A stretch of 64,000 nucleotides of DNA from positions 2-64,001 of the forward strand of contig JBDTCO010000064.1 in NCBI GenBank assembly GCA_039923495.1, in the 5' to 3' direction. Source of the DNA: Polyangia bacterium. Lineage in GTDB: Bacteria > Myxococcota_A > Polyangia > Palsa-1104. Under the pieces are notes generated by a model. The model did not search any database. It saw only the letters and a list, made by a program, of their open reading frames with translations, and was not told the origin of the DNA. Shown one piece after another: positions 28,045 to 34,259 of this stretch. The position numbers and the translations under genes are program-made. The number at the start of each line of letters is the position of its first letter. Position 1 is the first letter of the stretch.

Positions 28045-29076
28045 ATGCATAGGATGCTCGCCATGAAGAAGAAGACGCGCGGCCCCATCTCCACGTTCAT
28101 CGAGCATCACTACCGCCACTTCAACGCGGCGGCGCTCGTCGACGCTGCCAAGGGCTACGAGACGCACCTCGAGAAGGGCGGCAAGATGCTCGTCACGCTG
28201 GCGGGCGCGATGTCCACCGCCGAGCTCGGCATCAGCCTTGCGGAGATGATCCGCCAGGACAAGGTGCACGCCATCGTGTGCACCGGCGCGAACCTCGAGG
28301 AGGACATCTTCAACCTCGTCGCGCACGACCACTACGAGCGCGTCCCCGGCTATCGCCACCTGACCGCCGAGGACGAGGTCGCGCTCCTCGATCGTCACAT
28401 GAACCGCGTCACCGACACCTGCATTCCCGAGATGGAGGCGATGCGTCGCATCGAGAAGGTCGTGCTCGAGGAGTGGGTCAAGGCGGACAAGGCCGGCGAG
28501 CGCTACTTCCCGCACGAGTTCATGTTCAAGGTGCTGCGGTCGGGCAAGCTCAAGAAGAGCTACCAGATCGACCCGAAGGACTCGTGGATGCTCGCCGCGG
28601 CCGAGAAGAACCTGCCGATGTGGGTCCCGGGCTGGGAGGACGCGACGCTCGGCAACATGTTCGCTGGGCACGTCATCGCCGGGGATGTGAAGAACGTCCA
28701 CACGGTGCGCACGGGCATCGAGTACATGATGACGCTCGCCGAGTGGTACACGAAGACCGGCAAGCTGCTCGAGCCGCGTCGGCGCAACGGCATCGGCAAC
28801 ATCGGCTTCTTCCAGATCGGCGGCGGCATCGCCGGTGACTTCCCGATCTGCGTCGTGCCGATGCTGCACCAGGATCTGCAGCGCACGAGCGTTCCGCTGT
28901 GGGGCTACTTCTGCCAGATCAGCGACTCGACGACGAGCTACGGCAGCTACTCCGGCGCCGTCCCCAACGAGAAGATCACCTGGGGGAAGCTCGGCATCGA
29001 GACGCCGAAGTTCATCATCGAGTCCGACGCCACCATCGTCGCACCGCTCATCTTCTCGTGGCTGCTCGGCCGATGA
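28045..29076 (+). CDS. Deoxyhypusine synthase-like protein (DHS / homospermidine-synthase-like)
   Basis: DHS family signature across the full length (FNAAALVDA..., GAMSTAELG, CTGANLEEDI, GGGIAGDF). Start 28045, 28054 or 28063. Confidence 0.85.
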   Translation: MHRMLAMKKKTRGPISTFIEHHYRHFNAAALVDAAKGYETHLEKGGKMLVTLAGAMSTAELGISLAEMIRQDKVHAIVCTGANLEEDIFNLVAHDHYERVPGYRHLTAEDEVALLDRHMNRVTDTCIPEMEAMRRIEKVVLEEWVKADKAGERYFPHEFMFKVLRSGKLKKSYQIDPKDSWMLAAAEKNLPMWVPGWEDATLGNMFAGHVIAGDVKNVHTVRTGIEYMMTLAEWYTKTGKLLEPRRRNGIGNIGFFQIGGGIAGDFPICVVPMLHQDLQRTSVPLWGYFCQISDSTTSYGSYSGAVPNEKITWGKLGIETPKFIIESDATIVAPLIFSWLLGR

Positions 29077-29086
29077 ACTGCGGCTG

Positions 29087-32289: not shown

Positions 32290-32342
32290 CCAGAGCCGCG
32301 CGCGCTGGTAGTGGCCGTGGTCCTCGCGTAACATCTGCCGAC

Positions 32343-34259
32343 GTGGCGGGTTCAGGGGAGAAACCACCGGGTGCGAGCGCGTTCGACGCCACGTACGTGG
32401 CGGAACTCGATCCGGTGGCAATCGCCGACTCCGTCGAGGACGCGTCGTTCGTCGGTGGCATCATCGCGGAGCGTTACCGCGTCATCCGCGTGATCGGTCG
32501 CGGCGGGATGGGCACCGTCTACGAGTGTGAGCACGTCCAGCTACACAAGCGCGTCGCGCTGAAGGTCCTCGCGCACGCGGTCCGCAAGGACCCGGAGACC
32601 GCCTCGCGCTTTCTCACGGAGGCCCGAGCCGCGGCGCAGATCGGGCACCCGAACATCGTCGACATCTTCGATCTCGGCGAGCTCCCCACCGGTGGGACGT
32701 TCATCGCCATGGCGTTGCTCGACGGTCACGATCTCGACCGCGAGCTCAAGATCAGGGGCGCGATGCCGTTTCATCGCGCGCGCTCCATCGTCAGTCAGGT
32801 CTGCCGTGCCCTCGCTGCGGCCCACGCGCTCGGCATCGTGCACCGCGACATGAAGCCCGCGAACGTCTTCCTCGCGCGCGACGCGGACGGGATCGAGCAC
32901 GTGAAGGTGCTCGACTTCGGCATCGCACACGTGCAGGACGCGGACGCGGACGCAGTCGGGCTCACGCAGACGGGCACGATCCTCGGTACGCCGGCGTTCA
33001 TGTCGCCGGAGCAGGGGCGGGGTACCGGCCTCGACCATCGCACCGATATTTATTCGGTGGGCTGCATCCTCTACATGCTCCTCACGAACGAGATGGTGTT
33101 CCAGGGGCCGACGGCGATGGCCGTGATCGCCCGCCACATGGTGGAAGCGCCGGTGCCGCCATCGCAGCGCGTGCCCGAGACGCACATCCCGCCCGAACTC
33201 GACGCCGTCGTGCTGCGCGCGCTCGCGAAGGATCCGGCCGAGCGCTACCAGACGATGAAGGAGCTCTGGGGGGCGCTCGAGGGGTTGAACGCCGAACCGG
33301 AGAGCTGGAGCGAGGCGACGTCGGGACGCTTCGGATCGGTGCGGGATCTGGCGGAGATGGTGCCTCCAGAACAGGAGGCGCCGATCGTCATCGACACCGC
33401 CGCGCTGCCGCCTGTCTCCCGTCGTTCGTTCCCGCTCGCACTCGCAGCCGGCGGGGCGCTCGTCGCGTCCGCGCTCGGGCTCGGCCTCTGGTGGCAAACG
33501 CGTGCGCCGGTGCAGCCGCGCGTTGTGCACGTCCTCGAGCAGGTCGCGCTCGACGTGACCTCCAACCAGCCGGACGCGAAGGCGACGATCCGGGGTGTGA
33601 CGTATCCACTGCCGCTCCACACGCGACTGTCGCGTAGCGGTAACGCGGAGATGGTGGAGGTGTCAGCACCGTGCTGTGCACCGTCGAGATCGTGGACCAC
33701 GCTGGATCGCGACCGTGGCCTCGACGTCGCCCTTTCGCCCGTCGCGCCCGGGGTCGCACCGATCCCGCCGCTGCCGCTGCGTCATGGGACGCCGCATGGA
33801 ACGCGGCTCATCCCGGCAGCAAAAGAACCAACCGCTTCGGTCGTGCAGCCGCCCGTCGTGTCGGCACCGCCCGTGGTCGTAGCGGCGCCCTTCGTCCCGC
33901 AGCCGCTGCCGGTCGTCGCGCCGAAGCCGGTGGTCGCGCCGAAGCCGGTGGTCGCGCCGAAGCCGGTCGTCGCGCCGATGCCGCCGCTCGTCATCGCGTC
34001 GCAGCTGATGCAGCGCCTCGTGCACGCGCACCAGGCTGCCGTCGACTCGTGCATCGCGGAAGACCCGTCCGCGAGCGGCAAGCTCGGGTATCGCATGGTC
34101 ATCGCCGCGGACGGCAAAGTGGTTTCGGCTCAGCTGGTCGAGGCTGCCCGTCGGTATCCGTCCATCGAGTACTGTCTCGCGCACGCGCTGCCGCAGTGGA
34201 GCGTTGCGCCAGCGCCCGGGCGACGGGCCGAGGGCCGCGTCGTCATCGATCTAGACTGA
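32343..34259 (+). CDS. Ser/Thr protein kinase with TM segment, Pro-rich (PKPVVA)n linker and AgmX/PglI-like C-terminal domain
   Basis: Intact Hanks motifs (VALKVL, HRDMKPANV, DFG, SPE). GTG start inferred; an in-frame GTG slightly downstream is also possible. 18-bp x4 tandem repeat at ~33920-33995. Confidence 0.85.
   Translation: MAGSGEKPPGASAFDATYVAELDPVAIADSVEDASFVGGIIAERYRVIRVIGRGGMGTVYECEHVQLHKRVALKVLAHAVRKDPETASRFLTEARAAAQIGHPNIVDIFDLGELPTGGTFIAMALLDGHDLDRELKIRGAMPFHRARSIVSQVCRALAAAHALGIVHRDMKPANVFLARDADGIEHVKVLDFGIAHVQDADADAVGLTQTGTILGTPAFMSPEQGRGTGLDHRTDIYSVGCILYMLLTNEMVFQGPTAMAVIARHMVEAPVPPSQRVPETHIPPELDAVVLRALAKDPAERYQTMKELWGALEGLNAEPESWSEATSGRFGSVRDLAEMVPPEQEAPIVIDTAALPPVSRRSFPLALAAGGALVASALGLGLWWQTRAPVQPRVVHVLEQVALDVTSNQPDAKATIRGVTYPLPLHTRLSRSGNAEMVEVSAPCCAPSRSWTTLDRDRGLDVALSPVAPGVAPIPPLPLRHGTPHGTRLIPAAKEPTASVVQPPVVSAPPVVVAAPFVPQPLPVVAPKPVVAPKPVVAPKPVVAPMPPLVIASQLMQRLVHAHQAAVDSCIAEDPSASGKLGYRMVIAADGKVVSAQLVEAARRYPSIEYCLAHALPQWSVAPAPGRRAEGRVVIDLD

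Follow-up and report, generated by a model that had tools for sequence, protein, structure and literature searches.

What joins a deoxyhypusine synthase (DHS)-like gene, a HAMP-containing membrane sensor, a protein of 524 residues and a membrane Ser/Thr kinase that are encoded one after the other on the same strand? This arrangement occupies positions 28045 to 34259 of a 64-kb stretch of contig JBDTCO010000064.1 from a Polyangia bacterium (the whole stretch is called the window here), and an initial annotation had read it as a DHS-like enzyme linked to a sensory module. Our results give a narrower answer. The functional unit is the two-gene pair at 29087-32289, composed of the sensor gene and the gene of the 524-residue protein, named U524 in this work, and not the four-gene string. 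With slightly better than even confidence, we favor the reading that this pair is a phosphate-related sensor-effector unit operating independently of a phosphorelay. Our confidence is higher than this overall judgment for the pair and for the pseudo-kinase status of the sensor, and lower for the phosphate role. The gene order, the 10-nucleotide (nt) gap and the stop/start overlap reported initially agree with the open reading frame (ORF) coordinates, and the features on which the argument depends are the following:

28045-29076, plus strand: DHS-like gene, 343 residues, Pfam DS domain (PF01916, E = 2e-36); a neighbor outside the conserved module
29087-30715, plus strand: pseudo-histidine kinase with a HAMP domain, 542 residues; first part of the core, classed from its motifs as a kinase-dead PhoR paralogue
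29204-29566, plus strand: extracytoplasmic sensor domain of this protein, about residues 40-160, placed by alignment and sCache_like matches
29669-29809, plus strand: HAMP domain (PF00672), residues 195-241
30185-30712, plus strand: degenerate kinase core, with a DHp-like hairpin (residues 367-408) and a CA-like domain (residues 412-542)
30713-30717, plus strand: TGATG, the stop/start overlap between the sensor and U524 genes, read from the sequence
30715-32289, plus strand: U524, 524 residues; second part of the core, an uncharacterized family
31615-31752, plus strand: two conserved hydrophobic helices of U524, about residues 301-320 and 331-346, located by family-averaged hydropathy
32343-34259, plus strand: Hanks-type membrane Ser/Thr kinase starting with GTG, Pkinase E = 3e-45; a neighbor outside the conserved module

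The window has a G+C content of about 69%, and its closest relatives are Myxococcales metagenome-assembled genomes (MAGs). All four ORFs show a coding-type G+C content at third codon positions (0.83 to 0.94), and they are real genes, since each has many conserved homologues. The alignment of the DHS-like protein to its homologues begins at about residue 8; thus, the ATG at 28063 may be its true start. The gap between this gene and the sensor gene covers 29077-29086. The TGA of the sensor gene (30713-30715) and the ATG of the U524 gene have one base in common, which suggests that their translation is coupled, and 53 nt separate U524 from the Ser/Thr kinase gene. A scan of 27400-34700 gave no convincing promoter or terminator signal, and the Rfam search of the window returned no RNA family. 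A defense system was also considered and rejected: PADLOC had no match for the DHS-like protein, the sensor or U524 and only generic kinase matches for the Ser/Thr kinase.

The evidence for the pair comes from the genes that stay together across genomes. A profile scan for U524 in one genome per GTDB species yielded 552 relatives, and 80 loci were retrieved and searched with the four window proteins plus a hidden Markov model (HMM) of the HAMP protein. Among the 55 Myxococcota-type loci having at least 1.5 kb of upstream DNA, this HMM placed the sensor gene directly 5' of U524, in the same orientation, in 52; in locus L059, the two genes are adjacent in the reversed order. Clustering of all locus ORFs revealed the sensor as the sole widely common neighbor of U524. 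Overlapping-frame artifacts aside, the only other conserved neighbors of the pair amounted to subclade synteny in at most 11 loci. In the other loci, the end of the sensor ORF ranges from 36 nt inside to approximately 190 nt ahead of the point where the U524 alignment starts (approximately residue 20 to 26); a stop/start overlap or a very short gap is typical for these pairs. The pair-containing loci all come from one broad lineage, as would be expected if the adjacency were merely inherited synteny within a clade, with no functional relationship between the two genes. However, adjacency and strand have survived divergence of both proteins to about 25 to 30% identity, while all other neighbors changed, and together with the typically overlapping or closely spaced genes this leaves us giving hardly any credence to simple synteny.

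Several observations describe the distribution of the pair further. Two Polyangiales loci (L006, 6332-7885; L009, 6361-7866) have no pseudo-kinase 5' of U524 and carry there an ORF of approximately 500 residues with a weak cytidylyltransferase-like match (E = 5e-5 and 3e-4). All 80 best genomic loci belong to MAGs, with no isolate genome among them. Myxococcus, Sorangium and Haliangium do not appear among the 80 loci, and these model myxobacteria probably have no close orthologue of the pair, because non-myxobacterial matches at only 27% identity did enter the list.

The two outer genes do not share this conservation. Among the 80 loci, the DHS-like gene is found beside the pair in no more than two, those of the closest relatives (L001 and L002, with U524 identities of 93% and 77%, respectively), and it is absent from the neighborhood in 50 of the 52 pair-carrying loci. 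The distance between the DHS-like and sensor genes has already grown to approximately 610 nt in L002, and a divergent DHS copy with 65% identity was found 4 kb from the pair in L025. In L021 and L047, the sensor gene has a DUF4846 gene as its immediate neighbor; in the window, the DUF4846 gene lies upstream of the DHS-like gene. Because of this difference, the DHS-like gene and a small HHH gene look like an insertion specific to the lineage of the window. As for the Ser/Thr kinase, the closest relative (L001) retains only a 68-residue fragment of it, and the TonB-dependent receptor gene behind it is missing. Moreover, the window encodes three Hanks-type Ser/Thr kinases in 64 kb, so the adjacency of one of them is expected by chance. 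The unit proposed in the initial annotation, whether as a trio or with the kinase as a fourth member, is therefore not conserved; the sensor-U524 pair is. The DHS-like gene and the Ser/Thr kinase gene are lineage-specific neighbors, possibly cotranscribed with the pair here.

These data also bear on the proposal that the four genes constitute one polyamine- or deoxyhypusine-related sensory operon, in which the sensor module would control, or respond to, the product or substrate of the DHS-like enzyme. The four genes are codirectional and closely spaced (10 nt, a 1-nt overlap and 53 nt in turn), the scan for internal promoters and terminators gave nothing convincing, and the order DHS-sensor-U524 recurs in L001 and L002. 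Additionally, a spermidine synthase gene (11350-12357) is present in L021 approximately 1.8 kb 3' of U524, beyond a PhoU_div-PHO4 operon, an adjacency that is probably coincidental. The absence of DHS beside nearly all other pairs, the wide gap in L002, the loss of the kinase in L001 and the signs of a later DHS insertion all argue against such an operon. Furthermore, the DHS orthologues of Verrucomicrobiota, Planctomycetota and Eisenbacteria (L081-L083, gene at 6001-7047) are stand-alone genes with unrelated neighbors. We consequently hold a single four-gene operon to be quite improbable. The DHS-like gene, a member of a separate DHS clade, probably has no functional connection with the pair.

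What kind of sensor is the first member of the pair? Its layout comprises a first transmembrane segment (TM1), an extracytoplasmic sCache/PDC-like domain, a second transmembrane segment (TM2), HAMP, a PAS-like domain, a DHp-like remnant and a CA-like domain. HAMP is the sole Pfam match of the window protein (E = 2.7e-5, 24.8 bits against a cutoff of 25); among its orthologues, HAMP was detected in 48 of 48 (best E = 8.6e-14) and HisKA or HATPase_c in 0 of 48. The extracytoplasmic domain has sCache_like matches in six orthologues and weak NCBIfam matches to CreC and PhoR (30 to 46 bits against cutoffs of 356 to 500). Alignment of the orthologues with PhoR-type kinases by hhalign extends over the full length (probability 100, E = 2.4e-54). 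An AlphaFold2 (AF2) model built from a 23-sequence alignment, with a predicted local distance difference test (pLDDT) score of 82, reproduces the two transmembrane segments, HAMP and the PAS-like domain; its sensor domain is of the alpha/beta type, and the model ends with a helical hairpin and an alpha/beta sandwich. The best Foldseek match of this model is the WalK-YycH model 9a5d (E = 2.8e-21), followed by NifL, VicK, YF1, DivL, HK853 and kinase cores (E = 1e-21 to 1e-6). Thus, hhalign, AF2 and Foldseek agree on the fold and architecture of a two-component kinase.

The chemistry of a kinase is nevertheless gone from this fold. Where the aligned kinases have the H-box SHELRTP, hhalign places LLDRVD of the window sensor, leaving no phospho-acceptor His, and across the orthologues a His occurs in at most 3 sequences at any column. 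The DHp-like hairpin is itself missing in 30 of the 48. Taken alone, the CA-like part (the C-terminal 130 residues) is still recognizable as a kinase CA domain (E = 3.5e-6), but the ATP lid and the G2 box have disappeared in a deletion of approximately 25 residues; there is no conserved N-box Asn or G1 Asp, and only the GG at 521-522 is retained. The sensor therefore has neither the acceptor-His DHp nor the HATPase_c with N, G1, F and G2 boxes that define a histidine kinase. Of the HAMP/histidine kinase-like membrane sensor described initially, the HAMP domain and the kinase fold hold, and the kinase function does not; judged by its motifs, the protein is a kinase-dead pseudo-kinase. The CA-like domain, including the GG...LPRA signature at its C terminus, persists in the 30 hairpin-less orthologues (alignment A4). 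Selection therefore maintains this CA remnant for a role that is not ATP binding.

The origin of the pseudo-kinase is indicated by its nearest catalytically intact relatives, which are kinases of 585 to 610 residues with HAMP, PAS, HisKA and HATPase_c. They match the sensor over the sensor-HAMP-PAS portion (the N-terminal 40 to 57% of the protein) at 27 to 35% identity (E = 1e-13 to 8e-20). Pseudo-kinases and active PhoRs also have a set of invariant sensor domain residues in common (R81, T83, G89, R111-P112-E113, R127, Y138, A140 and R154; alignment A6). All three active relatives sampled (P0112, P0128 and P0115), one of them from a Myxococcales MAG, lie in phoB-phoR-pstS-pstC-pstA-pstB-phoU or phoU-phoB-phoR arrangements. 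Because these relatives sit in pho/pst operons, sequence comparison establishes a genuine PhoR as the ancestor of the sensor. The sensor is no longer a PhoR proper, which would be kinase competent and have a phoB/pst context of its own; its neighbors are the DHS-like gene and U524, and the catalytic motifs are absent. No Response_reg gene was found among the window neighbors scanned, and no conserved regulator cluster emerged from the 80 loci.

A pseudo-kinase of this type might act as a decoy or modulator of a genuine PhoR or another kinase, with U524 as a membrane accessory comparable to YycH/YycI that has no phosphate transport role of its own. The best structural match of the sensor is precisely a WalK-YycH model, its input domain is conserved between pseudo-kinases and active PhoRs, and accessory membrane proteins encoded just 3' of a sensor gene are a familiar arrangement, as in WalK-YycHI. 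On the other hand, the DHp dimerization hairpin is missing in most orthologues, which argues against a heterodimer with a real kinase, and the conserved neighbors include neither kinases nor response regulators. U524 is also widespread without the sensor as partner, so it must be able to function autonomously. We consider a decoy unlikely and keep to the reading in which the sensor and U524 together form the signaling unit.

U524 itself was described initially as having no recognizable domain, and this has been borne out: Pfam, NCBIfam and PADLOC contain no family that matches it. A homologue search returned 93 proteins, all unnamed and none with a Pfam domain, and the family comprises 2,131 clusters at 50% identity (E <= 1e-3). 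The top 150 representatives have a single architecture of 320 to 590 residues, with no domain fusion among them that could serve as a functional clue. Beyond Myxococcota, members occur in Sericytochromatia/Cyanobacteria, Chloroflexota, Planctomycetota, Vulcanimicrobiota, Oligoflexia and one gammaproteobacterium. Two candidate assignments were discarded as noise. Class-C beta-lactamase matches reached 18 bits against cutoffs of 680 to 850, and HEF_HK, the DHp-like helical domain of paraMORC-type kinases (PMC8011034), appeared in 9 of 46 members (alignment A1; best E = 0.011), which is probably due to helical composition. Of the two observations that the initial annotation had named as speaking against its proposal, nonconservation of the trio was found and a well-known housekeeping homologue of U524 was not.

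The structural check suggested in the initial annotation gave a confident AF2 model (pLDDT, 87.7; predicted template modeling score, 0.81) and no known fold: Foldseek of the model against the Protein Data Bank (PDB) and BFVD had no match at E <= 1e-3, and a U524 profile search of PDB sequences found nothing. In the model, beta strands at the N terminus (20-83) lead into a bundle of six helices (101-286); the membrane hairpin comes next, and a beta-rich domain (366-523) closes the protein. In family-averaged hydropathy, the hairpin is the sole hydrophobic part of U524, and there is no N-terminal signal-like segment. A short loop links the two hairpin helices, which are followed by a near-invariant Y-x-x-K-D-R-I-K-E motif; A308, A311, Y343, D347, R348 and I349 are invariant around the hairpin. 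Over the whole protein, most invariant positions carry charged or aromatic residues (R81, R253, E269, D347-R348, R407, R449, Y485 and R516). Because a signal sequence is lacking and basic residues flank the hairpin, both soluble domains are probably cytoplasmic and held at the membrane by the hairpin.

A large cytoplasmic domain with a two-helix membrane hairpin also invites the idea of a channel or transporter, in which U524 would oligomerize in the manner of CorA/Mrs2, with the hairpins lining a pore under the cytoplasmic domain, gated by or working alongside the pseudo-PhoR or phosphate carriers. The small residues A308 and A311 are invariant in the first hairpin helix, as for tight helix packing, U524 adjoins transport genes, and CorA and MRS2 are among the Foldseek matches. 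However, these matches are not significant (E = 0.4 to 1.6, TM-scores of approximately 0.1), the loop between the helices shows little conservation and lacks a GMN-type motif, and the helices are short and followed by a 160-residue domain, unlike CorA. A channel is thus rather unlikely, and an accessory or regulatory protein anchored in the membrane remains our preferred view of U524.

Why should this protein be related to phosphate? In one U524 subclade, a Na/Pi-cotransporter gene (PF02690) always follows immediately 3', often with a 4-nt overlap. Ten loci have this linkage, assigned by Pfam:

L058 (Vulcanimicrobiota), 7953-11230: U524 and Na/Pi-cotransporter genes
L076 (Planctomycetota), 7920-11222: U524 and Na/Pi-cotransporter genes
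L085, 5001-8431: U524 and Na/Pi-cotransporter genes
L087-L093: U524 and Na/Pi-cotransporter genes in metagenome loci, with the Na/Pi gene 3' of U524 in 7 of 7 having enough downstream DNA

The linked transporters (540 to 583 residues) are only about 30% identical to one another, and neither Pfam nor hhalign detected a PhoU domain in them. A second type of phosphate machinery, the PHO4 (Pit) carrier and/or its accessory protein PhoU_div, was seen beside U524 in four loci. On the metagenome contig L091 (4902-9826), the U524, Na/Pi, PhoU_div and PHO4 genes are tightly packed on the plus strand. In the myxobacterial loci L021 (9647-12357, minus strand) and L047 (5926-7629), a PhoU_div-PHO4 operon converges on the pair, beginning 57 nt past U524 in L021, and in L062 a PhoU_div gene abuts U524. 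The relatives of U524 in other phyla have no sensor partner. Since three phosphate machineries recur next to U524, namely, a PhoR derivative, Na/Pi carriers and Pit with its accessory protein, a role of U524 in phosphate physiology is suggested.

Several points weigh against this interpretation. The phosphate link is guilt by association, was spotted post hoc and perhaps represents three or four independent linkage events. Phosphate genes are missing from the surroundings of approximately 60 other U524 loci, whose neighbors include RecA/XerC, RuvB, a peroxidase and TrpA, among others, and outside the myxobacteria the neighbors are unrelated at most loci. No phosphate gene was present among the window ORFs scanned either. 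U524 has no homology to PhoU or PhoU_div, as hhalign against small alignments of these families gave a probability of 0.1% and Pfam gave no match, for which reason it was rejected as a member of either. With respect to topology, the modeled hairpin is short, Ala/Gly-rich and less confidently predicted (pLDDT, 59 to 81), so a monotopic or peripheral membrane association is possible. Finally, there may be a local regulatory link between the DHS-like gene and the sensor in this lineage, because the 10-nt gap between them fits cotranscription. Apart from these points, RecA, the XerC-type recombinase, 3-hydroxyacyl-CoA dehydrogenase and RuvB were considered as functional clues and set aside, as their recurrence looks like taxon synteny.

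Taking both sides into account, we propose the following scheme. The sensor retains the input half of PhoR, that is, the sCache-like domain, HAMP and the PAS-like domain. Because the acceptor His and the N, G1 and G2 boxes have been lost and the DHp has mostly been deleted, it should be unable to signal to a response regulator, and its output would instead pass through protein-protein contact. U524, whose gene appears translationally coupled to that of the sensor, would be the obvious target, and its hairpin could pack against the transmembrane helices of the sensor. The part of U524 in phosphate uptake or homeostasis would be to assist or regulate the phosphate machinery of the membrane, a function comparable to that of PhoU, although the two proteins are not homologous. 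According to this scheme, a duplicated PhoR would have been recruited in Myxococcota as a kinase-independent sensor of U524, acting by direct contact. A bolder version is that U524 founds a new class of membrane-anchored phosphate homeostasis proteins, coupled to Na/Pi and Pit carriers in several phyla and driven in Myxococcota by a kinase-dead PhoR through contact, not a phosphorelay. We put this forward only tentatively, as a possibility less probable than not.

How PhoR-type sensors perceive phosphate, and how transporters relay this information, is still debated. A kinase-less PhoR derivative locked to one partner offers a simplified system for studying binding and signaling by the PhoR input domains; if our reading is true, phosphate would be sensed here by protein-protein contact alone instead of by a phosphorelay. 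U524 represents a sizeable unannotated family in several phyla, and its placement by three phosphate machineries gives a testable hypothesis for its function. Caution is also needed in annotation, since pipelines will wrongly call the sensor a "HAMP domain-containing histidine kinase."

The neighbors outside the pair have their own points of interest. In the DHS-like protein, the catalytic Lys is kept, with TWGK aligned to the SWGK of solved DHS family proteins, and Y, Y, V and N stand at the positions of human D313, D316, R320 and D322. It remains below all NCBIfam cutoffs for DHS, SpeY (1,9-bis(guanidino)-5-aza-nonane synthase) and homospermidine biosynthesis, with best scores of 98, 96 and 83 bits against 450, 434 and 500. 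The protein is 82 to 88% identical across Myxococcota, Verrucomicrobiota (Opitutales), Planctomycetota and Eisenbacteria, which equals the identity to a close myxobacterial relative, and third codon positions are only 59 to 73% identical across the phyla. High protein identity combined with low third-position identity indicates that this clade is under extreme purifying selection and is not the result of recent transfer, which makes it worth studying in its own right. The initial annotation was right that bacterial DHS-like enzymes are poorly understood: reviews note bacterial DHS orthologues without an experimental link to EF-P (PMC12856214). The characterized SpeY homologues join two agmatine molecules into a homospermidine precursor, and their genes usually lie beside arginine decarboxylase and agmatinase genes (PMC13625781). 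Neither of these two genes was seen among the genes examined near the DHS-like gene or its orthologues.

The Ser/Thr kinase has a clear Pkinase domain (155 bits) and one transmembrane segment (residues 363-384), in agreement with its first description, and the AgmX/PglI-like tail noted there is a weak match (myxo_SS_tail, 27.9 bits against a cutoff of 40). A Pro-rich tandem repeat of PKPVVA, in approximately three copies (33921-33977), lies in the extracytoplasmic part just before this tail. Elsewhere in the window, signaling genes comprise Ser/Thr kinases, one of them with PEGA (9346-11319 and 60517-62517, minus strand), a double-FHA protein (16068-17360, plus strand) and a GAF-GGDEF cyclase (1824-3692, minus strand); such a dense content of signaling genes is typical of Myxococcota. 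The interval 50605-54075 carries cdaA (DAC domain), a YbbR domain gene and a glmM-like phosphoglucosamine mutase gene, which is the conserved operon arrangement of the cyclic di-AMP synthase, and an FtsH gene (47344-49740) lies upstream of this cluster.

Compared with known systems, the DHS-like neighbor resembles SpeY and deoxyhypusine synthase in its Pfam DS domain and in the catalytic Lys of the WGK motif but differs in its NCBIfam scores (83 to 98 bits where cutoffs of 450 to 500 apply) and in having no arginine decarboxylase or agmatinase gene seen nearby. For the pair, WalK-YycH/YycI is similar in that a membrane protein gene directly follows the sensor gene and its product plausibly contacts the sensor transmembrane helices. 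However, WalK is an active kinase, and YycH and YycI are extracytoplasmic, have a single transmembrane helix and are unrelated to U524. PhoU, PhoU_div (DUF47, the Pit accessory) and the PhoU domains fused to Na/Pi carriers are, like U524, nontransporters encoded beside a phosphate carrier, and PhoU talks to PhoR. In contrast to PhoU, with which it has no sequence homology, U524 is twice the size, has beta-rich domains and is predicted to be membrane anchored.

DivL and NifL, which controls NifA, follow a similar logic: both were among the Foldseek matches of the window sensor, which like them combines a kinase fold with an output other than phosphotransfer, presumably exerted by partner binding. 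DivL and NifL are soluble or polarly localized proteins with known partners (NifA and DivK/CckA), whereas the window sensor is transmembrane, has an extracytoplasmic domain and is paired with a protein of unmatched fold. DivL also keeps its DHp, with Tyr replacing His, while in the orthologues of the window sensor the DHp is often absent. With PhoR, finally, the sensor shares homology over its full length, the order sensor-HAMP-PAS-DHp-CA and the extracytoplasmic invariants; it differs from PhoR in having no acceptor His or ATP boxes, in the deletion of the DHp hairpin in most orthologues and in its gene context, where U524 is the partner in place of adjacent phoB or pst genes. What is new here is thus an undescribed protein family within a variant of a known signaling logic.

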